DNA of 64,000 bases from a bacterium (GTDB taxonomy: Bacteria > Patescibacteriota > Minisyncoccia > UBA6257 > WO2-44-18): NCBI GenBank assembly GCA_030646995.1, contig JAUSKF010000004.1:20404-84403 (forward strand), in the 5' to 3' direction. The translations under genes and the position numbers were made by a program. Shown here piece after piece: positions 9,882 to 62,283 of this stretch. Position 1 is the stretch's first letter, and each line of letters begins with the position of its first letter. Under the pieces are notes generated by a model. That model ran no database searches. It had not been told where the DNA came from and was given only the letters and a program-made list of their open reading frames with translations.

Positions 9882-10274
9882 ATGAAAAGGATATATTTCT
9901 TAGTTGCCGTTTTAATTGCAGCAATCGCGGCATTAATCTTTTGGTTTACACCAAAAAGTTTAATTGAGGTTTATTCTCCAAAGAATGATTCGATCATCAC
10001 CAGCCCGGTAACTATCAGCGGTCAGGCCCGCGGATTTTGGTACTTTGAAGCTTCTTTCCCCGCAAGATTACTGGACGGAAATGGGAAAGAAATCGCTATC
10101 ATTCCGGTGCAGGCCCTGGATGAGTGGATGACGGAAAGATTCGTCCCCTTCTCCACAAAGATGGAATTCATCGCCCCAAAGACCGACACCGGCACTTTGA
10201 TACTGCAAAAAGACAATCCCTCGGGTTTACCGGAGCACGACGCCGAAATTCGAATCCCAGTTAGATTCCGATAA
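9882..10274 (+). CDS. Hypothetical secreted protein (Ig-like/Gmad2-like?)
   Basis: 130 aa, N-terminal TM/signal. Confidence 0.45.
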   Translation: MKRIYFLVAVLIAAIAALIFWFTPKSLIEVYSPKNDSIITSPVTISGQARGFWYFEASFPARLLDGNGKEIAIIPVQALDEWMTERFVPFSTKMEFIAPKTDTGTLILQKDNPSGLPEHDAEIRIPVRFR

Positions 10275-13496: not shown

Positions 13497-13620
13497 TGCT
13501 TCTCGGACACAGAATAGCCCCACTCCAACGGTGGGGCTTTCTTCTCTCTCGGCGGTTAATCGTTCGTAAAATAATAACGAACGAACCAAGCTTAACCGCC
13601 TCCGAGATGTTCCTTAAAGC
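13497..13620 (+). repeat. Structured ~125-bp repeat element, copy A (family shared with 34014-34140 and 48568-48704)
   Basis: Shares CTCTCGGCGG-hairpin(GTTCGTTCG..CGAACGAAC)-CCAAGC..AACCGCCTCCGAGATGTTCCT core with copies B and C; 5' hairpin differs by compensatory changes. Confidence 0.7.
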
Positions 13621-13685
13621 AACACGACCAAGCCCCAAGACACCAAGAGAACAAAAAGTAGCCTCACTCATGTTGGGAGGCGTAG

Positions 13686-15168: not shown

Positions 15169-15229
15169 AAATAAGTCATTGCTTTCAGTATAACTAAGAT
15201 ATGGTAAAATAAACAGTAATGACTGAACG

Positions 15230-15472
15230 CCCTTTTTCCCAATTGATAAGAGAAATTTTTACTCAAGCCCGAGGCTTGTTTATGCCGTCATATAAACATA
15301 TGACCAATAAACTTAACAAAGGGATTGATAAAAATTTCCTTACCCTTCCGGGAGGCGCGACTATAGCCGATTTCTTTGTCGCTCTTCTTCAGCGTAGAGT
15401 CTACGCTTTCATCGTCGCTTCGCGAAATCTAGGCTATAGTCGTAGCCTTCAATTGGAAAAGGAGGGTATTTA
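15230..15472 (+). repeat. Duplicated ~245-nt structured element, copy 1 (candidate ncRNA/leader), upstream of LOG-family gene
   Basis: ~93% identical 3' 140-bp block and identical 5' 30 bp with copy at 23734-23976; terminal closing helix CCCTTTTTCCCAATTGA/TCAATTGGAAAAGGAGGG; internal long stem CGACTATAGCCGATTTC/GAAATCTAGGCTATAGTCG. Confidence 0.55.
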
Positions 15473-15484
15473 GTCATTACCAAA

Positions 15485-20207: not shown

Positions 20208-20798
20208 TCATTCGGTTGGGAGACCAGCTGAAGTCTCGGGTGCCGCTGGGGGTGGACCAACCTCGGCGGGATTTCTTAATTTTGATATCAGGCTCTGGAA
20301 TTTTTCATAATCAGGTAAATCTTCAACTCTGGCCACGCCCAAAAACTTCAAAAGCTCGAAGTTAGGCTTATACAAATAAACATTCCCCCTCTTCGGGTCA
20401 GGATAACGCTCCACAAGCCCTCGGATAGAAAGATTCCGCAAGCTGAAGCTGGAATTGACGCCTCGGATATAATCCAGCTCTGCGCGAGTCATCGGGCCGG
20501 CATAAGCGACGATGGAAAGCGTCTCTAGGGCGGCCGGTGTCAGATTTTCCCGCAATTCTTCTTTCATCACTGTCTCCAGCAAAGAAGAGAAGTCTGGCTT
20601 GGTAGTTAGTTGAACTTTTTCTTTATCGTAAACCAAAAAAAGTCCGCGATTCCCGGCCTTCAACTCTTCCGCTAATTTCTTAAGCGCCGCCTCTACATCT
20701 TCTTCAGAAGCCTTTAAAGTTTGTGCAATCTTTTTTAAACCAATTGCATCTCCGTAGATAAAAAGTAGCGCCTCAATTTTAGCTATTATTTCAGCCAT
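20208..20798 (-). CDS. scpB: Segregation and condensation protein B
   Basis: Winged-helix ScpB pattern (LEALLFIYGD...TLSIVAYAGPMTRAELDYIRGV); start trimmed to MAEIIAKIE inside ORF 20208..20846; Pro/Ala-rich C-terminal tail. Confidence 0.8.
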   Translation of the reverse strand: MAEIIAKIEALLFIYGDAIGLKKIAQTLKASEEDVEAALKKLAEELKAGNRGLFLVYDKEKVQLTTKPDFSSLLETVMKEELRENLTPAALETLSIVAYAGPMTRAELDYIRGVNSSFSLRNLSIRGLVERYPDPKRGNVYLYKPNFELLKFLGVARVEDLPDYEKFQSLISKLRNPAEVGPPPAAPETSAGLPTE

Positions 20799-23666: not shown

Positions 23667-23733
23667 CAATCACCCGCCCCCCACAGGGGCGGTTTTTTTA
23701 CTTTTGTTATAGAATAATAGCAATGTCCAAATA

Positions 23734-23976
23734 CCCTTTTTCCCAATTGATAAGAGAAATTTTTATTCAATCTCCAAGGCGCGAGAGTGTAGCTGTAGAC
23801 TCTACTGCAAGCTTGAGCAACGAAGGAGTTTATAAAAATTTCCTTACCCATCCGGGAGGCACGACTATAGCCGATTTCTTTGTCGCTCCTCTTCAGGGTA
23901 GAGTCTACGCTTTCATCGTCGCTTCGCGAAATCTAGGCTATAGTCGTAGCCTTCAATTGGTAAAGGAGGGTATTTA
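23734..23976 (+). repeat. Duplicated ~245-nt structured element, copy 2, immediately upstream of dnaX
   Basis: See copy 1 at 15230-15472; all 5 substitutions in the shared 140-bp block would be non-synonymous in the ORF-track frame. Confidence 0.55.
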
Positions 23977-23987
23977 GACATTGCCGT

Positions 23988-32480: not shown

Positions 32481-32483
32481 AAG

Positions 32484-32530
32484 AGTAATCGCTAATAATG
32501 CTAATTAAAGATTTAATATTGCGAATGGGC
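32484..32530 (+). repeat. 47-bp TGCGAAT-triplet motif, copy 1 (copies also at 47541-47587 and 62233-62283)
   Basis: AGTAATCGCTAATAATGCTAATTAAAGATTTAATATTGCGAAT; three spaced A(T/A)NGC(G/T)AAT half-sites. Confidence 0.6.
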
Positions 32531-32588
32531 TTAAATACTCATTATTTGCATTATTTGCCAAAATTCGTATTATTAGCGAAAACTAACT

Positions 32589-33971: not shown

Positions 33972-35105
33972 TTATCGGAGCGGTTTTTGGTTGCAGAACA
34001 CCCTACATCTTTCGGCCAGACAGCTTCTCGGAAACAGAATAACTTTTCTCCTGCGGAAAAGTTTTCTTCGCTCTCGGCGGTTGTTCGTTCGATTATATAA
34101 ACGAACGAACCAAGCCCAACCGCCTCCGAGATGTTCCTCAAACCAATCTGACCGAAAGATGGGTACTTCCGTCGACGGAAGTAATAAATTTAGCCTCGCT
34201 TTTATTTTATTCGCGTTCCCATGCCCCAACATCCCCAAATATGACTGCCGGGATTGCTCATTTGGATTCTCTTTCAATCTCCGGAACATTTTCCACTTTG
34301 TGACGAAGCGAATAACCCTATGATCCGGGAAATGCACCCAGCCGAGAAAATCCACTCCCGAAACAAGGGTCTTCAGAAATAACTTGTCTTTGTGAATGAA
34401 TAATTTGAGATTCTCCTCAAGGAAATCCTGAATTTTCGGGATTATTTCCACAAGTCGTTCCTTGTCCGGAGACAAAAACACAAAGTCATCGGCGTATCTT
34501 ACGTAATGTCGGGCTTTGAGTTTATGCTTCACGAACTGGTCAAATTGATTCATATAAACATTAGCGAATAACTGGGAAGTGAGATTGCCGAGGGGCAGAC
34601 CAAAACCCGGCTTGGTGGAGAAACTACTTATGACATTCTCTAACAGCCAAATTATTTTCTGGTCGGGAATATATGCCTTCAGAATTTTGAGAAGAATCTG
34701 ATGATTAATGCTGTCAAAAAACTTTTTGATATCACACTTTAATACCCAGCAGGTTTTGGTGTGATTTTTGCTAACTTTATATGCTATCGCTCGGAAACGA
34801 TTAAGCGCTCGATGGGTTCCCTTTTTGATCCGGCAGGAAAACGAATCGGCAAAGAAAGTTTTATCAAAAAATGGATAAAGCAATCGGTGAATGGCGTGAT
34901 GAACGAGACGATCGCGAACTTCCGCCTTGTGAATGATGCGTGGTTTGGGGTCGGCGATTCGGAATTGATAATAGCCGCCGTGACGGTATCTTTGACTTGC
35001 CAACTCCCCGTGAAGCGATAGAATGTTATCCATAAGATTGAAACCGAATTCCTGCACATCCTTTTTACCTCGCTTCCCCTTCAAGAATTCCTGCCAAGCA
35101 ACCAA
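33972..35105 (-). CDS. Diversity-generating retroelement reverse transcriptase
   Basis: RT motifs incl. YADDFVF (motif C), GNLTSQLFANVY (DGR-type motif 4 with SQ), VDFLGW; N-terminal region colinear with Bordetella-phage-type bRT; last ~60 codons read through repeat element B and are probably not genuine. Confidence 0.85.
   Translation of the reverse strand: MVAWQEFLKGKRGKKDVQEFGFNLMDNILSLHGELASQRYRHGGYYQFRIADPKPRIIHKAEVRDRLVHHAIHRLLYPFFDKTFFADSFSCRIKKGTHRALNRFRAIAYKVSKNHTKTCWVLKCDIKKFFDSINHQILLKILKAYIPDQKIIWLLENVISSFSTKPGFGLPLGNLTSQLFANVYMNQFDQFVKHKLKARHYVRYADDFVFLSPDKERLVEIIPKIQDFLEENLKLFIHKDKLFLKTLVSGVDFLGWVHFPDHRVIRFVTKWKMFRRLKENPNEQSRQSYLGMLGHGNANKIKARLNLLLPSTEVPIFRSDWFEEHLGGGWAWFVRLYNRTNNRRERRKLFRRRKVILFPRSCLAERCRVFCNQKPLR
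34014..34140 (+). repeat. Structured ~125-bp repeat element, copy B; overlaps 3' end of RT ORF on opposite strand
   Basis: ~90% identical to copy C (48568-48704 reverse complement) and core-identical to copy A. Confidence 0.7.
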
Positions 35106-35166
35106 AAGATTTTCAATAGAAATTATATCCTCAAAACTATGACGGAATTGAATTCTACCTATAACG

Positions 35167-35176
35167 CCCCCCCCCC
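35167..35176. repeat. Homopolymeric C10 tract in divergent RT/avd promoter region
   Basis: ACGCCCCCCCCCCAGCC between RT start (35105) and avd start (35191). Confidence 0.8.
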
Positions 35177-35190
35177 AGCCGATTTTTCCG

Positions 35191-35532
35191 TTGTTGCATA
35201 AAATAAAAGATGCTTACGCGCTTTGGTATTCCTACTACCAGATTCTACCAAAAACCCACCGCTACTCGCTCGGCCAGAAAATTGACTCTCTTTTTGTAGA
35301 AATTATAGAAACCGTGGCTGCTGCCGGCTTTATCGCCAAGGAAAAGAAGCTGGCATATTTAAGTTTGGCGATTATGAAAGTAGATACGCTAAAAGTTTTG
35401 ATGATGGTTCTCTGGGAGAATAAATCGCTGAACGATAAAAAATATATTCAAATATCTTTTAAAATAAGCGAACTAGGAAAAATGCTTGGCGGCTGGCTGG
35501 GAAAGATTCAGAAACAAAACTCTCCCCGCTAA
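35191..35532 (+). CDS. avd: Avd-like accessory variability determinant (four-helix-bundle protein, TIGR02436-like)
   Basis: 113 aa, basic helical protein with pattern resembling 23S-IVS/four-helix-bundle family; divergent to RT and adjacent to TR. Confidence 0.65.
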   Translation: MLHKIKDAYALWYSYYQILPKTHRYSLGQKIDSLFVEIIETVAAAGFIAKEKKLAYLSLAIMKVDTLKVLMMVLWENKSLNDKKYIQISFKISELGKMLGGWLGKIQKQNSPR

Positions 35533-35544
35533 AAAGCGGGGAGA
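35521..35544. other. GC-rich hairpin flanking TR (DGR hairpin/cruciform candidate)
   Basis: CTCCCCGCTAAAAAGCGGGGAGAG; avd stop codon lies in loop. Confidence 0.6.
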
Positions 35545-35555
35545 GAAATAGATAG

Positions 35556-35690
35556 ATTTGCGACGACCGAACACCCAGACGTTGTCGGGATTCCAGAAGT
35601 TGTCAGCGTTGCCGTTGTTCGCGTTGAGCCAATGCTCATCGCTATTATGCTCCACGTTGAACACGTTCGGGTTGCCGTTCGAGTCAGTTA
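35556..35690 (-). repeat. DGR template repeat (TR), Asn/AAC-rich
   Basis: ~135 bp; coding-strand reads ...NGNPNVFNVEHNSDEHWLNANNGNADNFWNPDNVWVFGRRK; 24 of 25 mismatches vs VR lie at TR adenines. Confidence 0.85.
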
Positions 35691-35935
35691 TATATAAGAG
35701 GCTGCCTATGCCACCGCCCATTGAATACTCTCTGGGTTGTATCGAATTCCGTACCTAAAGTACGATAGCCTCTTATACCAAGTATCTCTATTTTTTTAGA
35801 GTTCTGCGCGCGCCACTCTATCTCCAACCTTGATCAGAAACACACTCGACACGCGGATACTGGATTCGGCAGCAAGGAACCTTAGTCCCCCGCGTATTCG
35901 CCTAATACCAAAATTATATTAACATACGCTAAAAA

Positions 35936-35970
35936 CAAAAACCCCCGCGCTCGAAAGCGCGGGGACAAAG
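35936..35970 (-). terminator. Intrinsic terminator after DGR target gene; doubles as VR-proximal hairpin
   Basis: CCCCCGCGCTCGAAAGCGCGGGG with T-run on minus strand. Confidence 0.65.
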
Positions 35971-36008
35971 AGTCAAAGGGCCAGGTCAAAAGTTCCAAGG
36001 ACTAAGAG

Positions 36009-36764
36009 CTACTTGCGACGACCGAACACCCAGACGTCGTCGGGATCCCAGAAGCGGCCAGCGTCGCCGTCGCTCGCGTGGAGCCAATGCCCACCGCCAT
36101 CCGGCTCCACGCAGAACACGAACGGGTAGCCGCTCGAGTCAGAAATCGGCTCCATTCCGACCAGAATCCATTCCCCGTAAGGCTGGTCCTGGTATTGGAG
36201 GCGGAGCTGGGGGCCGACTTCGGCAGGGCAGCGATCCAAGCCAAGCTCTTTGGCTTCGGCGTAGATCTGCTCGCGAGTGCCGCCACTGGGAAGTCCCAGT
36301 TGGGCGACCGTCATCTTGACCAGATCGATCTCTATCTCCTTGGGGTTGACCGAGATCTTTTTCAGAATGTCGTTGCCCCAGTCAGAGACCCGGTTTTTCT
36401 TGCCGATGATGGCCTTTCGGAGAGCCTCCGGAGACGGATGCGTTCCCAGCTTGAGGGTCTTCCAGACAGGAAGAGCGGAAGAGCATCGAATCGGCTTGAT
36501 CTCGCCAACCCTGGCAATCGCCTGGTCGATTCGGTCGCAGAACTGCTGAAGTCCGGTGATTTTTTCACCGAGCTCAGAACGAAGCACCTCCAAATCATTC
36601 TTGTGTGCCTGCTTCGCTTCCGAAAGCTGGTTTTCCAACTCTCCGATTTTCTTCACCTCTTCCTTGGCCTCCTCGCAAACTTTCGTCAAATCCCCACTCA
36701 AGTCGACGTCTTCTTCAGACTTCTTTTTTCCGCTCACCGGAGCTCTCCTGAATTGGGTTATCAA
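36009..36764 (-). CDS. DGR variable (target) protein: N-terminal coiled coil, C-terminal ligand-binding domain ending in VR
   Basis: C-terminus ...GYPFVFCVEPDGGGHWLHASDGDAGRFWDPDDVWVFGRRK encoded by VR; perfect TTGACA-17-TATATT promoter upstream. Confidence 0.8.
   Translation of the reverse strand: MITQFRRAPVSGKKKSEEDVDLSGDLTKVCEEAKEEVKKIGELENQLSEAKQAHKNDLEVLRSELGEKITGLQQFCDRIDQAIARVGEIKPIRCSSALPVWKTLKLGTHPSPEALRKAIIGKKNRVSDWGNDILKKISVNPKEIEIDLVKMTVAQLGLPSGGTREQIYAEAKELGLDRCPAEVGPQLRLQYQDQPYGEWILVGMEPISDSSGYPFVFCVEPDGGGHWLHASDGDAGRFWDPDDVWVFGRRK
36012..36147 (-). repeat. DGR variable repeat (VR)
   Basis: Matches TR over ~135 bp with adenine-specific substitutions (AAC->AGC/TAC/TTC/GAC/CAC etc.). 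Confidence 0.85.
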
Positions 36765-36803
36765 TTTTTATCCGCCGAATAGCGGATTTGTGAACTGCCG
36801 TAA

Positions 36804-36832
36804 ATATAGCAGAGTTGAGGCTATTTGTCAAC
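36804..36832 (-). promoter_or_regulatory. Sigma70 consensus promoter of DGR target gene
   Basis: TTGACA-17-TATATT on minus strand; paralogous promoter at 38407-38436. Confidence 0.6.
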
Positions 36833-36862: not shown

Positions 36863-36950
36863 GGGGGGGGATATTGACTTAGTCCAAATGGAACGCTATA
36901 ATGGGGATACTAAACGTGAAGGGCATCCTATATGGGTGCCCTTCGTTTTT
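36863..36950 (+). promoter_or_regulatory. G8 tract + TTGACT-17-TATAAT promoter followed immediately by intrinsic terminator (tiny transcript unit)
   Basis: G8 36863-36870, -35 36874-36879, -10 36897-36902, hairpin GAAGGGCATCCTATATGGGTGCCCTTC 36918-36944 + T6. Confidence 0.5.
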
Positions 36951-37573
36951 TATTCCATTTTTATACGCTCTCTAAGATATTCGAAGTCCCTGAAATCACT
37001 GCCTGCAAACTGCTTGATTTCTTTAGCAGTCCTCGCTCCTCTACCTAAAACCACAACCTCTTTCTTCTCAGATCGAAGATGTTTCAATACGGGAAGGAAG
37101 TCTCCATCGCCTGACAAAACAAGAACTCTATCAAAATTGTCTTTTTCTCTCATTAAGTGAAAGGCCATATCCACATCACAATTAGCTTTTCTTTTTGTGG
37201 AACCGTCATCTTGGTTATATAGCTTTACTGGTTTAAGAAAAAGTTTGTATCCGAACTTCTCAAGACGAATATAGAATTTAACTCTTTGAAGATGTCTACT
37301 GATTAAAGCGAGCTGCGCTTCATTGAGCTTCCTGTCTTTGTTCTCGGGTAGCTGTCTCAAATACTTCTCTAGCTCTTTTAGAGGAACGGTCTCATTGGAT
37401 TGGTAATCATATGGAAATTCATAAATTTCCACGCCGCCAAAATAAAAAACCGTATCTACTCCATATTTTTCTTTTAGATACTCAAGGAGTTTTTTGTAGT
37501 CTATTTTCCAACCTAAACTCTTTTCGCCGCCATAAAAAAGATTGGATGCATCCACAAAACCATATGCTTTCAT
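36950..37573 (-). CDS. NYN-domain (LabA-like, PIN-fold) ribonuclease
   Basis: GFVDASNL..., ANCDVDMAFHLM, VLSGDGDF motifs of PF01936; AT-rich, sandwiched between the two DGR target paralogs. Confidence 0.7.
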   Translation of the reverse strand: MKAYGFVDASNLFYGGEKSLGWKIDYKKLLEYLKEKYGVDTVFYFGGVEIYEFPYDYQSNETVPLKELEKYLRQLPENKDRKLNEAQLALISRHLQRVKFYIRLEKFGYKLFLKPVKLYNQDDGSTKRKANCDVDMAFHLMREKDNFDRVLVLSGDGDFLPVLKHLRSEKKEVVVLGRGARTAKEIKQFAGSDFRDFEYLRERIKME

Positions 37574-37654
37574 GCGTCTATTTTATAATAAAAGCTCGCA
37601 ATAAAAAAGCCCTCATGAAGCTAGCTTCATGAGGGCGCCCAAGTGTCCAAGGGC

Positions 37655-38341
37655 CTAAGACTTGCGGACGGCGAGGAAACGATAGCTGCCGTACCAATCG
37701 CTGCCGAACCAGTAGAGATTGAGCTTCCGAACGTCGAACCAGTACAGATACGGCACGCGGCGGTTGCCGAACGAGCCCCGCCAAGGATTCCCGAGCCCGA
37801 CGATCGGATATTGCTTGTGCTCGTCGGGATGGGCCATCTGGTAGTGGAGGAGCGTCTTCAGGGAGGCCGGTTCGAAGCCGTCACGCTTCATCTCGGCGAC
37901 CACGTTGTCGGAATTCATGTCCCGACTGAAGTGATACATCTTGCACTCCAGCGTTTCCGTGCCGTCCGTCTTCTCCTGATTGAAATGCTTTTCCGTGATG
38001 TCGGAGTTGACGTAGCTAAACCCGGCTTCGCCGATGAGCTGAGAGATGGACTTTCCGTAGTTCACGATCAAGGAATTGTCCGGAGGCTTTCCGGATTTCG
38101 CGCGACCGAACTTGTCGATCACTGCCTGAATCTTCTCGGCCGTCGCTTTCGCGCTGGCCGCCACCTGCTCCATCTCCGACTTGGCTTCCTGAAGAACCTG
38201 CTCAGCTTCCTGCGACATCGTGTCTAGCTTGCCCTTGAGATCCTTATTGATCTCTTCCAAAGCAGCAATCACCGGGTCCCACATGTTCTGGCTGTTCTCC
38301 ACTGCCTCCTCCACGTCGGAAGACTTCTTTTCTTCGCTCAC
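37655..38341 (-). CDS. Paralog of DGR target protein (coiled-coil N-terminus; C-terminal region diverged from TR)
   Basis: Colinear with target 1 (…YQ..Y.IVG.G.P… then W/F/G-rich tail ending RKS); near-identical promoter/5'UTR to target 1 (TTGACA-18-TACATT). Confidence 0.6.
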   Translation of the reverse strand: MSEEKKSSDVEEAVENSQNMWDPVIAALEEINKDLKGKLDTMSQEAEQVLQEAKSEMEQVAASAKATAEKIQAVIDKFGRAKSGKPPDNSLIVNYGKSISQLIGEAGFSYVNSDITEKHFNQEKTDGTETLECKMYHFSRDMNSDNVVAEMKRDGFEPASLKTLLHYQMAHPDEHKQYPIVGLGNPWRGSFGNRRVPYLYWFDVRKLNLYWFGSDWYGSYRFLAVRKS

Positions 38342-38541
38342 GGCAATCTCCTTGAATTGGGTTTTCAGTTATTTTCCGCTTAATTGCGGACTTCAGAACT
38401 GCGGTAAATGTAGCACACTTTAGGCCTATTTGTCAAGAAGTCTGTTTAAGCACGCTAAAACCTCCTCAACGTCAACACCGCCTTCTCTAATAGACGTAAA
38501 ATCTATGATTGTTTCCCAGCCCTCTTCTTGTTTCTTTGACT

Positions 38542-38775
38542 CTAAAAATTTAGCCATTTGTCCTTTGGAATACCGGACTGCGCAATCATACCCTTGAAAG
38601 TTCGAGGTTTAAAAGTTTTTGATGAATGAAACGGTACGCAAACTTGCATCAATTTTCCCTCATAGACTCCGGTGAAAAAATGATGACTCCCCTCCGTATG
38701 ATTCAGGCGAAAACCGTGCTCTTTTAAAAACTCTACAACATCATGAAACGTCCAATTAAAAACCTTTCTAGGCAT
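38542..38775 (-). CDS. hicA: HicA-family toxin (mRNA interferase)
   Basis: 77 aa, YcfA/HicA pattern (…HTEGSHHFF…). Confidence 0.7.
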   Translation of the reverse strand: MPRKVFNWTFHDVVEFLKEHGFRLNHTEGSHHFFTGVYEGKLMQVCVPFHSSKTFKPRTFKGMIAQSGIPKDKWLNF

Positions 38776-39109
38776 GCACCAAGCTACGGTTACTCATGCT
38801 GCCAAAAGTAAACACGTTTGACGGCACATCTTCTTTATTAGACTTTTTTACCTCCAATGAGTTCCACATATTTTCATATTCGGAATCAGTTTTTTGATTC
38901 AAAATATGATTGATTCGAGCTTTGGCCTTTTTAGCTGATTTTAAATATCCACGGGTGGCTTCAAGCAAAAGGAACAGAGCCTCATCGGGCGTGTCGCCCG
39001 ATTCCACAATATTAAATTCCAAACCAACGCCATACCAAACACCCTCTTCGCGAAAGATTATATACCTTAAAGACCCTTTTTGCAGAGTATTTTGATGTAG
39101 TTTAGTCAT
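38768..39109 (-). CDS. hicB: HicB-family antitoxin (N-terminal HicB/UPF0150 domain)
   Basis: 113 aa, overlaps hicA start by 8 bp. Confidence 0.6.
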   Translation of the reverse strand: MTKLHQNTLQKGSLRYIIFREEGVWYGVGLEFNIVESGDTPDEALFLLLEATRGYLKSAKKAKARINHILNQKTDSEYENMWNSLEVKKSNKEDVPSNVFTFGSMSNRSLVHA

Positions 39110-47536: not shown

Positions 47537-47540
47537 ATGG

Positions 47541-47587
47541 AGTAATCGCGAATAATGCTAATTAAAGATTTAATAATGCGAATAAGC
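47541..47587 (+). repeat. 47-bp TGCGAAT-triplet motif, copy 2 (abuts trmD start codon)
   Basis: AGTAATCGCGAATAATGCTAATTAAAGATTTAATAATGCGAAT. Confidence 0.6.
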
Positions 47588-47616
47588 TCATGGTACTGCG
47601 GATCCGGGAAAACTAA

Positions 47617-60472: not shown

Positions 60473-62248
60473 TTGTATTTTATGAGTAAAATTGTATCTA
60501 TGGCTTCCGAAACTAATCTAGAAAATATTCGCCACTCGCTCGCCCATTTGTTAGCGGCGGCGGTTTTAAAAAAATATCCGAAAGTAAAACTCGGTATTGG
60601 CCCCGTCATTGAGAACGGGTTTTATTATGATTTTGACCTGCCCGAAGCGCTGACTCCCGAAGACCTGCAAGATTTCACAAAAGAAATGCGGAAAATGATT
60701 AACGCCAAACTCCCCTTCTCGGGCGAGGAAGTTACAGCCGCGGCCGCCACCAAGCGGATGAAGGGCCAGAAATATAAGCTGGAATTAATCAAAGATTTTT
60801 CCAAAGAAGATCAGAAGCTTTCTATATATAAAACCGGCGATGTCTTTGAAGACCTTTGCCGCGGAGGCCATGTGGCCGACACTTCGGAAATAAATGCCGA
60901 AGGTTTTAAGTTGGATTCCATCGCCGGAGCTTATTGGAAAGGCAGCGAGAAAAATGCCCAGCTTCAACGTATCTATGGATTGGCCTTCGCCAACAAAAAC
61001 GAACTGGAAGCCTTCTTAAAAATGCGCGAAGAGGCCCAGAAGCGGGACCACCGCAAACTCGGCAAAGAGCTAGAACTTTTTGAGATCATTGATGAAGTCG
61101 GCCCAGGATTGCCGTTGTTCCATCCGAAAGGCGCGATCTTGCGCCGCGTCGTAGAAAACTACATCACCGAACTTCAGGAAAGCCGAGGCTACCAACCGAT
61201 CTGGATCCCCCACATTACCAAAGGCGAGCTCTACAAGATCTCCGGCCATTTGGATAAATACGACGCGATGTACCCGCCAATGAAGCTCAAAGACGAGGCG
61301 GATTACTACATCAAACCGATGAACTGCCCGCACTTTATGATGCTTTATAAAGCTCAACAGCATTCATATAAAGAGCTACCAGTGCGCTGGACCTGCACCA
61401 CCACCAACTATCGCCACGAAAAATCCGGCGAGCTTTCCGGCTTAACTCGCGTGCGCTCACTCACCCAAGACGATTGCCACGTGTTTGCCCGACCGGATCA
61501 GATAGAACCAGAAATTAATCTGATGCTGGATATGATAGAAGAGGTTTATAAAAAATTCGGCTTCAACGATTTCTGGGTCCGCATCTCCACGCGCGATCCG
61601 AATCCGCCAGCTGGCGGATCGAAAGATAAATATATCGGCGATGAGAAGGTCTGGCAGGAATCCGAAGAAGCTCTGGCTCGGCTCATCCAAAAGCGCGGCT
61701 GGAAGCATGAGATCGGCGTGGGCGAGGCCGCCTTCTATGGTCCAAAGTTGGATTTCATTTTCAAAGACGTGATTGGCCGCGATTGGCAGCTTTCCACAAT
61801 TCAATTAGATATGAACCTGCCGAAAAGATTTGATTTGGAATACACCGACACCGATGGCACCAAAAAAGCTCCAGTGGTCATTCATCGCGCAATCTTAGGC
61901 TCTACCGAGCGCTTCTTGGGAATACTCATTGAGCACTATGGCGGCGCCTTCCCTGCTTGGCTCGCTCCTGTGCAGGTAAAAATCGTGCCGATTTCAGAAA
62001 AGCATCTGGCCTATGCGGAAAAAATCAAAAAGGAATTGGTTGGCTATCGCGTAGAAATTGCTTCCGAAAACGACACGCTTGGGAAAAAAATCCGCAACGC
62101 TGAAAAGGAAAAAGTGCCGTTCTTGGCGGTGGTTGGAGATAAAGAAATGGAAAGCGGCATGGTTAGCCTGCGCGAACACGGCGGCAAAGACCACGGCTCG
62201 ATAAGTGTAGAAAAACTGAAAGAAATGCTCCGGAGTAATCGCGAATAA
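60473..62248 (+). CDS. thrS: Threonine--tRNA ligase (lacking N-terminal TGS domain)
   Basis: Class II aaRS motifs, second additional domain (HxxxH…CGGxH), anticodon-binding domain; contains in-frame CCGCCAGCTGGCGG (NPPAGG). Confidence 0.9.
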   Translation: MYFMSKIVSMASETNLENIRHSLAHLLAAAVLKKYPKVKLGIGPVIENGFYYDFDLPEALTPEDLQDFTKEMRKMINAKLPFSGEEVTAAAATKRMKGQKYKLELIKDFSKEDQKLSIYKTGDVFEDLCRGGHVADTSEINAEGFKLDSIAGAYWKGSEKNAQLQRIYGLAFANKNELEAFLKMREEAQKRDHRKLGKELELFEIIDEVGPGLPLFHPKGAILRRVVENYITELQESRGYQPIWIPHITKGELYKISGHLDKYDAMYPPMKLKDEADYYIKPMNCPHFMMLYKAQQHSYKELPVRWTCTTTNYRHEKSGELSGLTRVRSLTQDDCHVFARPDQIEPEINLMLDMIEEVYKKFGFNDFWVRISTRDPNPPAGGSKDKYIGDEKVWQESEEALARLIQKRGWKHEIGVGEAAFYGPKLDFIFKDVIGRDWQLSTIQLDMNLPKRFDLEYTDTDGTKKAPVVIHRAILGSTERFLGILIEHYGGAFPAWLAPVQVKIVPISEKHLAYAEKIKKELVGYRVEIASENDTLGKKIRNAEKEKVPFLAVVGDKEMESGMVSLREHGGKDHGSISVEKLKEMLRSNRE

Positions 62249-62283
62249 TGCGAATTAAAGAGGTAATATTGCGAATAATAAAC
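62233..62283 (+). repeat. 47-bp TGCGAAT-triplet motif, copy 3 (overlaps thrS last four codons)
   Basis: AGTAATCGCGAATAATGCGAATTAAAGAGGTAATATTGCGAATAATAAAC. Confidence 0.6.

Follow-up and report, generated by a model that had tools for sequence, protein, structure and literature searches.

The question raised by positions 33972-36764 of the DNA analysed here is whether they hold a complete diversity-generating retroelement (DGR), with a reverse transcriptase (RT), an accessory variability determinant (Avd) and a template repeat (TR), plus a variable repeat (VR) in a target gene, and whether such an element would be out of the ordinary for its host. The DNA is a stretch of 64,000 nucleotides (hereafter the window; contig JAUSKF010000004.1 of GenBank assembly GCA_030646995.1, forward strand, positions 20,404 to 84,403) from a bacterium of the Patescibacteriota, the lineage also known as the Candidate Phyla Radiation (CPR). 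All four DGR parts were found at or near the coordinates given in a first-pass annotation, which had been made from the sequence alone, and the complete DGR proposed there, with an adenine-mutagenised VR at the C terminus of a target protein with a coiled-coil N terminus, was upheld by every test run. The DGR at 33972-36764 is real, complete and a member of a well-known class. It is very probably an intact chromosomal element with the layout that is normal for CPR/Patescibacteria (target/VR, TR, reverse-strand avd and RT; architecture type B3), and its sequence indicates that it is probably functional. The element itself is ordinary, and the interest of the locus lies in a conserved structured leader RNA and in a VR-specific flanking array. 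Feature coordinates are collected in Table 1.

A complete diversity-generating retroelement

The TR and the VR form a direct repeat of 130 nt that is 84% identical. When the two copies are compared on the minus strand, 21 mismatches appear, and in 20 of these a TR adenine is changed (to G in 13 cases, to T in 4 and to C in 3). The hypergeometric probability of 20 out of 21 mismatches falling on the 35 adenines of the 130-nt repeat is 3.5e-13, which bears out the claim that the differences are almost exclusively at TR adenines. Since the mismatches concentrate on the adenines of the copy at 35558-35687, this copy was assigned as the TR and the copy at 36013-36142 as the VR; the repeat pair first reported is thus real, and only its dimensions (a TR of '~135 bp', a VR at '36012-36147') were slightly too large. 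The TR was also correctly described as rich in AAC, with 10 AAC and 2 AAT codons when read in the frame of the VR, and 36 of 37 TR adenines stand at codon positions 1-2 of that frame. Adenine substitution cannot create a stop codon in any diversified codon, the only stop-capable codon being an AAA past the 3' end of the repeat, and ~10^21 proteins could be encoded from the TR. The final 23 nt (GTCTGGGTGTTCGGTCGTCGCAA) are the same in TR and VR and divergence starts directly after them; a GC hairpin follows 47 nt downstream of the VR, with a repeat array in between.

The RT open reading frame (ORF) carries the motifs LGNLTSQLFANVY and YADDFVF. Its LGNLTSQ fits the signature of DGR RTs, [I/V/L]GxxxSQ, as opposed to the QGxxxSP of introns and retroviruses (PMC7826257), and the catalytic YADD is intact, so that the DGR-specific motif 4 and the motif C named in the first reading were both found in the ORF. 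The RT matched Pfam RVT_1 with E=1.6e-26. The closest solved structure was that of the Bordetella phage RT, bRT (PDB 8ub7, E=9e-42), in line with the kinship first suggested, whereas the best group II intron RT among solved structures reached 2.8e-19, retron RTs 1e-4 or worse, and defence RTs were also far weaker. In the structure-match alignment, with residues counted by hand, the Arg of a PKPR motif stands opposite R74 of bRT and a Leu opposite I181, two bRT residues reported to promote adenine mutagenesis (PMC7826257). On these matches the RT belongs to the DGR RT family.

A grouping of the RT with group II intron or retron RTs had been named at the outset as a result that would tell against a DGR. 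On such a reading the RT would be of group II intron, retron or defence type and the 130-nt repeat an ordinary partial gene duplication. It draws some support from the NCBIfam search, in which no DGR RT family was among the matches and the best match was the group II intron RT/maturase model TIGR04416, with 139 bits, far under the cut-off of 300. However, the match to bRT surpasses that to the best group II intron RT by 22 orders of magnitude, the motif is LGxxxSQ and not QGxxxSP, an Avd gene is adjacent, the mismatches are adenine-specific, and Rfam found no intron RNA or retron RNA family. What is shared with group II intron RTs is membership of the RT superfamily and the weak TIGR04416 match; maturase and endonuclease domains and an intron RNA are missing here. 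The bRT match, the LGxxxSQ motif, Avd and the adenine-specific mismatches contradict this reading, which is extremely improbable and was rejected.

On its match to Pfam PF22296 (bAvd; 47.8 bits, over the cut-off of 40), the 113-aa ORF on the opposite strand is Avd, as had been proposed for this divergent ORF. The region between the RT and avd starts presumably holds promoters for both genes; a promoter consensus scan reported no site in 35106-35190.

The deposited target protein and its homologues are 242 aa long, and the translation start was therefore placed 9 codons into the ORF, at a Val codon at 36737 (presumably GTG). Of the statement that the VR ends a 251-aa protein, the C-terminal VR stands, with 44 codons, and the length does not, 242 aa being the likely size. 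The target has no recognisable domain, signal peptide or membrane segment, and searches of Pfam and NCBIfam returned no match for it. Homologues number 296, none of the 120 listed having a Pfam domain, and the few that are named by organism come from Parcubacteria, Berkelbacteria and Nealsonbacteria metagenome-assembled genomes (MAGs). The family alignment shows a variable N terminus and a conserved C-terminal domain of ~150 aa, over whose final 45 residues hypervariable positions stand between the fixed residues of a scaffold (W, L, W, F). In the AlphaFold model of the target, residues 26-87 form a long helix, after which comes a compact domain. When the C-terminal domain was predicted alone, the predicted local distance difference test score (pLDDT) was 95.6. 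A C-type lectin fold is predicted for this ~155-aa domain, which ends in the VR, and such an outcome had been anticipated. The closest known variable proteins are the C-type-lectin-fold Mtd, Treponema TvpA (2y3c) and domains of the formylglycine-generating enzyme (FGE)-sulfatase type.

Architecture, related loci and activity

A total of 38 loci encoding relatives of the RT were fetched, the named ones being mostly Patescibacteria MAGs. Their RTs are 45-82% identical to that of the window, except for one locus from a Pseudomonadota MAG (L040) at 29%. An avd gene was detected in 31 of the related loci and lies on the strand opposite the RT in all 31, and an adenine-biased TR/VR pair was detected in 27. 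Wherever both avd and a TR/VR pair were found, the order is target/VR, TR, reverse avd and RT. The locus in the window has the same order on the minus strand (TR at 35687-35558, avd at 35191-35532 on the plus strand, RT at 35105-33972), which is architecture B3, 'TR-(avd)-RT', the type of 90% of CPR DGRs (Wu et al. 2018, PMC5758913). In two of the related loci (L007 and L012), two VRs each match one TR.

Given this B3 frequency and the 31 out of 31 related loci with a detected avd, the divergent avd/RT arrangement is not unusual, contrary to the first view. The extra genes thought to be embedded in the locus could not be found either: no gene lies between the DGR parts, and the ORFs annotated there are the TR itself (35473-35721, 82 aa) and an antisense of the target (36078-36782 on the plus strand, 234 aa). 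The coiled-coil N terminus of the target is matched by the predicted long helix. In the CPR-restricted DGR clade of Roux et al. 2021 (PMC8144416), targets are typically without signal peptide, membrane segment or known domain. The B3 layout, the CPR-typical target and the lack of extra genes between the parts together make the locus a typical member of its class. With the CPR B3 DGRs (PMC5758913) and DGR clade 2 (PMC8144416) it shares gene order, strands, reverse avd and host lineage, as well as a single target that has a C-terminal VR and is without recognisable domain, signal peptide or membrane segment, and nothing essential differs. Two things are peculiar to this copy: its RT ORF continues for ~60 aa into a repeat element, and 0.9 kb upstream of the target there is an apparently orphan VR-type paralogue. 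DGRs have already been catalogued in thousands from CPR genomes, and this DGR alone therefore changes little.

The first of these peculiarities concerns the end of the RT gene. Related RTs end at 305-326 aa and align only to residues 1-314 of the 377-aa ORF. The last ~60 codons (about 33972-34153) are not RT and read through into a structured repeat of 130 nt, so that the RT carries a foreign C-terminal tail. The repeat element occurs at 34023-34153 and 13498-13629 (77-85% identical), sits between convergent genes at both sites and folds well on the plus strand (z-scores of -4.5 and -8.6), one of its hairpins showing compensatory changes between the two copies. Rfam gave no family for it at gathering or E-value thresholds, and it is missing from all related loci searched.

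Comparison with an orthologous target bears on whether the element has been at work. In a Parcubacteria contig (Gr01-1014_19, locus L001, 292-1100), a 78%-identical target orthologue keeps the VR, the array and a near-identical terminator hairpin. The two VRs differ at 29 sites, 24 of them in TR-adenine columns (69% of the adenine columns against 5% of the others), while the 300 nt before the VR are 84% identical between the two loci. In place of leader, TR, avd and RT, unrelated genes (for radical SAM and other proteins) come after the L001 target, and the DGR cassette in that genome is either lost or located elsewhere.

Several observations weigh against an intact and active element. One TR/VR mismatch is not at an adenine (a T>G beside a mutated A); Avd stays under the cut-off of the NCBIfam model DivGenRetAVD (E=7.8e-18, 64.7 bits, cut-off 80); and the ~60-aa foreign tail might impair the thumb domain of the RT. 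An exact 42-nt scan of a metagenome collection, aimed at strain variants of the target gene, gave no match. The alternative is a fossil DGR, in which the parts are still recognisable, retrohoming has ended and the VR pattern records past activity only. The mismatch fits such a fossil, as do an RT ORF without its normal stop, the L001 orthologue without adjacent TR, avd or RT, and a related locus (L025, 3024-3953) in which the RT translation from the start of the match stops after 95 aa, though tblastn matches residues 1-313. That early stop could reflect a pseudogene, a frameshift or an assembly error. Against a fossil stand the ORFs, all of which are open, the intact catalytic YADD and SQ motifs, the TR adenines kept at codon positions 1-2, and the leader RNA helices (described below), which are intact in the window. 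Moreover, 20 of the 21 differences are still at adenines, so that there has been little ordinary drift since the last homing event. We consider a fossil quite unlikely. From the open ORFs, intact motifs and RNA helices, the near-pure adenine pattern and the L001 comparison, recent activity of the element is plausible, and we infer that it may be active now.

The leader RNA and a possible priming scheme

In an alignment (A7, 20 loci) that starts at the target stop codon and extends past the TR, a non-coding leader of ~220 nt before the TR is conserved, although the RTs are mostly only about 60% identical. RNAalifold gave 48 base pairs for the leader, 42 of them with compensatory changes. In the structure named in Table 1, 91.9% of cells are paired, and this falls to 40-53% when the partner strands are slid by 1-3 columns. 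Sliding also lowers the covariation score, from 0.70 to at most 0.22, and none of 500 shuffles reached the observed values. A covariance model of the leader core (R1, 109 positions) matched 30 loci once each, 13 of which had not been used in building it; in every locus with a mapped TR, its match ends at the TR start or no more than about 10 nt from it, and the window has a single match, at 35689-35797. Rfam searches at gathering or E-value thresholds gave no family for the leader or the TR region. Ahead of the leader 5' domain lies a block resembling an extended -10 box (TGnTAnnAT-like), a putative promoter of a leader-TR RNA judging by its conservation in A7; the consensus promoter scan did not report it.

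The leader is connected to both edges of the TR. At the 5' edge, the strand beside the TR pairs upstream in helix P3, where 10 of the 12 pairs covary. At the 3' edge, the strand just after the TR is complementary to a primer-like strand in the leader core. This long-range helix was spotted by eye and then tested, RNAalifold alone having not predicted it. Across the alignment 82.8% of its cells are paired, slid controls reaching 49-63%, and two positions show A-U/G-C exchanges; in an alignment-free test the mean duplex energy was -6.6 kcal/mol within loci and -3.9 kcal/mol between loci, none of 2000 permutations being as good. Divergent loci such as L007, L008 and L023 have clearly different yet complementary strands. 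A point against the helix is that, in the window, one mismatch occurs in its 9 bp.

Beyond the TR, non-coding sequence amounts to 12 nt and a GC-rich hairpin, the remainder being avd coding sequence; the avd stop codon lies within the hairpin loop. Most of the 27 related loci examined have a hairpin with a T-run at this position, with differing stem sequences. The hairpin may act as terminator of the TR RNA, as an Avd-binding stem-loop, or in both roles; Avd-binding stem-loops just downstream of the TR have been reported in 207 of 278 DGRs (bioRxiv 10.1101/2023.10.23.563531).

The best-studied point of comparison is the DGR of Bordetella phage BPP-1 (mtd-avd-TR-brt). The two elements have in common an RT homologous to (here) or identical with (there) bRT, with the SQ motif and an equivalent of R74, an Avd, a TR of ~130 nt with AAC codons, a VR at the C terminus of a C-type-lectin-fold protein, a GC hairpin after the VR and a stem-loop just 3' of the TR. 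They differ in that avd lies here on the opposite strand between TR and RT, the element is chromosomal and not phage-borne, the post-VR hairpin is 47 nt away past a repeat array and not immediately after the VR, and the RNA scaffold stands upstream of the TR, whereas that of BPP-1 is in the downstream spacer. In BPP-1, the 2'-OH of the spacer nucleotide A56 serves as the primer for cDNA synthesis (PMC6182149), and the order seen in the RNA by cryo-electron microscopy (cryo-EM) is an upstream stop strand, the TR, the Avd-binding stem-loop, the primer strand, a second stop strand, a short stem-loop, unpaired adenosines, a single-stranded 'thumb ring' and an RT-binding stem-loop (bioRxiv 10.1101/2023.10.23.563531). 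Primer strand, stop strand and RT-binding elements of the BPP-1 type were not found downstream of the TR in the window; the covarying partner strands lie upstream, in the leader. The order there is a strand pairing at the TR 3' end, the short conserved linker, a strand pairing with the sequence immediately 5' of the TR, a short stem-loop, an A-rich single strand and a further stem-loop. The order of BPP-1 elements (primer strand, stop strand, stem-loop, single strand, stem-loop) is thus apparently kept here in circularly permuted form. As the covarying partners lie upstream, the element may work like the BPP-1 RNA without having its linear order.

These observations suggest, as a tentative proposal to which we would give somewhat less than an even chance, that the RNA of B3 CPR DGRs is a circular permutation of the BPP-1 DGR RNA, with priming from within the leader, a stop at P3 and an end at the hairpin. 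The simplest reading of the sequence would place the permutation point between the Avd stem-loop and the primer strand. In such a scheme, a non-coding RNA of ~400 nt comprising leader, TR and 3' hairpin would be transcribed from about 35910 to the hairpin/U-tract at 35545-35515, the TR RNA probably ending at the post-TR hairpin. The leader would supply both the primer strand and the stop duplex. Its strand at 35785-35793 would anneal just 3' of the TR and an internal leader nucleotide would prime reverse transcription. Extension from this strand would copy the whole TR, because its 3' direction runs into the TR, and P3, which closes 4 nt 5' of the TR, would serve as the polymerisation-stop duplex that halts the cDNA at the TR 5' edge. 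By analogy with BPP-1, an RT-Avd complex would copy the TR into cDNA with misincorporation opposite the 35 template adenines, and the cDNA would replace the VR, recoding up to 23 codons on the C-type-lectin-fold domain of the 242-aa protein.

The competing possibility is the standard, non-permuted order, in which the TR transcript runs through the hairpin into antisense avd and draws its primer strand and RT-binding elements from there, the leader then having another role, such as regulation, Avd loading or provision of no more than the upstream strand of the stop duplex. All such elements are downstream of the TR in BPP-1, and a hairpin right after the TR need not end transcription. However, only the 12 nt and the hairpin are non-coding downstream of the TR, the T-run that follows the hairpin in most of the 27 loci resembles that of an intrinsic terminator, and all conserved, covarying non-coding sequence is upstream of the TR, including the partner of the TR-5'-adjacent strand. 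In the published survey of other DGRs, CPR elements included, coverage was limited to 40 nt on the upstream and 100 nt on the downstream side of the TR (bioRxiv 10.1101/2023.10.23.563531). A standard order seems to us somewhat unlikely.

The VR-flanking array and neighbouring genes

Between the VR with its stop codon and the downstream hairpin lies a degenerate array of short repeats. Its CTTNG core was counted 85 times in 27 stretches of 70 nt after VRs, where ~9 were expected (an enrichment of about tenfold), and 5 times after TRs, which no such array follows. Array and hairpin also follow the L001 orthologous target, which has no adjacent TR, avd or RT, the second VR-type gene of the window at 37655-38341 (downstream region 37590-37654), and the homologue of that gene in L042, where no RT gene lies within 10 kb. 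The hairpin at 35941-35966 may be the terminator of the target gene and possibly the counterpart of the post-VR hairpin in the Bordetella phage DGR. We hypothesise, from their position, that array and hairpin mark the VR as recipient, like the initiation of mutagenic homing (IMH) sequence and hairpin in BPP-1. To our knowledge, how DGR cDNA finds and replaces the VR is still unsettled. The array unit resembles the leader linker ACTTGG.

The gene at 37655-38341 has a predicted charged helical N terminus and belongs to a family of 29 CPR proteins with the C-terminal scaffold GSVWR..G.R.VPYL....R.L.L.WF...W....RFLAVRK, between the fixed residues of which lie hypervariable positions, as expected of a DGR variable region. 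A paralogue on another contig of the same genome (P0122, Q7S83_03370) is 62% identical, and its differences in the VR-like part are, by our reading, of the Asn/Tyr/Asp/Ser/His kind. A 105-nt stretch at 36717-36821, within which the promoter-like site of the target gene falls, is 76% identical to 38321-38425 and covers the promoter-like site, the 5' untranslated region and the first codons of both genes; this suggests that the target and the gene at 37655-38341 share a regulatory and N-terminal module. The L042 paralogues share sequence likewise (9915-9985 with 20232-20303, plus 51 identical nt inside the genes). The families of this gene and of the target are not significantly related by BLASTP or hhalign (E=0.15), though their alignment is collinear. 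The gene was considered as a second target of the present TR and rejected, as it has no DNA match to the TR, and the covariance model found no second leader/TR for it in the window. Either the gene is targeted at a distance by a second TR, or it is an orphan.

An NYN-domain gene lies between the target and the gene at 37655-38341, and a HicA toxin gene lies beyond the latter, overlapped by an ORF of 113 aa that occupies the place of the antitoxin and was matched by neither Pfam nor NCBIfam; no evidence ties these three to the DGR. Elsewhere in the window, a 49-nt AT-rich element (GAGTAATCGCTAATAATGCTAATTAAAGATTTAATATTGCGAAT...) occurs three times (32483-32531, 47540-47588 and 62233-62281; 82-100% identical), apparently in intergenic positions, and segments of 55 and 167 nt within 15212-15481 and 23716-23985 are duplicated 8.5 kb apart with 85-93% identity.

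Table 1. Features of the DGR locus and its surroundings (window positions; L001 and L042 are related loci with their own numbering)
Feature	Position	Strand	Remarks
DGR RT ORF	33972-35105	-	377 aa; homologous RT part about aa 1-314 (34164-35105)
Divergent intergenic region, RT start to avd start	35106-35190		85 nt; from the ORF map
avd (accessory variability determinant)	35191-35532	+	113 aa; strand opposite RT, TR and target
GC-rich hairpin with U-tract after TR	35520-35545	-	10-11 bp; 12 nt past TR; terminator-like in scan
Post-TR strand TATCTATTT	35546-35554	-	pairs with leader 35785-35793; primer-binding site in the proposed model
TR	35558-35687	-	130 nt; 35 adenines
Leader core	35689-35797	-	primer-like strand, linker, P3, P4, P5; RNAalifold and covariance model
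Helix P3	35767-35778 with 35692-35703	-	12 bp; closes 4 nt before TR
Hairpin P5	35716-35737	-	inside P3
Conserved A-rich single strand GGAATTCGATACA		-	inside P3, between P4 and P5
Short hairpin P4	35751-35763	-	inside P3
Linker TACTTG	35779-35784	-	almost invariant; leader core
Primer-like strand AAATAGAGA	35785-35793	-	complementary to post-TR strand
Leader 5' domain	35807-35913	-	conserved block TTTGGTATTAGGCGAATAC, P1, conserved TGCCGAATCCAGTA, P2
Long hairpin P2	35807-35855	-	leader 5' domain
Hairpin P1	35872-35893	-	leader 5' domain
Extended -10-like box TGTTAATAT	35914-35926	-	TGnTAnnAT-like block conserved in A7; a few of the 20 loci lack the TG or have it displaced
GC hairpin with T-run after target gene	35941-35966	-	terminator scan; also in related loci
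Degenerate repeat array RYCCTTDG	35967-36008	-	period 7-8 nt; between VR/stop codon and hairpin
RYCCTTDG arrays elsewhere	L001:1017-1065; L042:10583-10650
VR	36013-36142	-	last 44 codons of target gene
Target gene ORF	36009-36764	-	251 aa; likely start 36737, 242 aa
Promoter-like site of target gene	36803-36831	-	TTGACA-17-TATATT with TG; promoter scan
NYN-domain (RNase-like) gene	36950-37573		between target and gene 37655-38341
Second VR-type gene	37655-38341	-	family alignment; shared upstream region
HicA toxin gene	38542-38775		beyond gene 37655-38341
ORF overlapping HicA	38768-39109		113 aa; antitoxin position

The locus is thus an entry point to two clade-wide features, the structured leader RNA and the VR-marking repeat array with its hairpin, for neither of which was a description found in Rfam 15 or in the searchable literature. 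If array and hairpin do mark the recipient, a recipient-site-specific signal would make the step from cDNA to VR testable. With the leader, reconstitution of a CPR DGR could start from a short and well-defined RNA of ~400 nt and, if the permuted model is true, the largest reservoir of DGRs would have kept, in rewired form, the cis-priming mechanism seen by cryo-EM in one phage.

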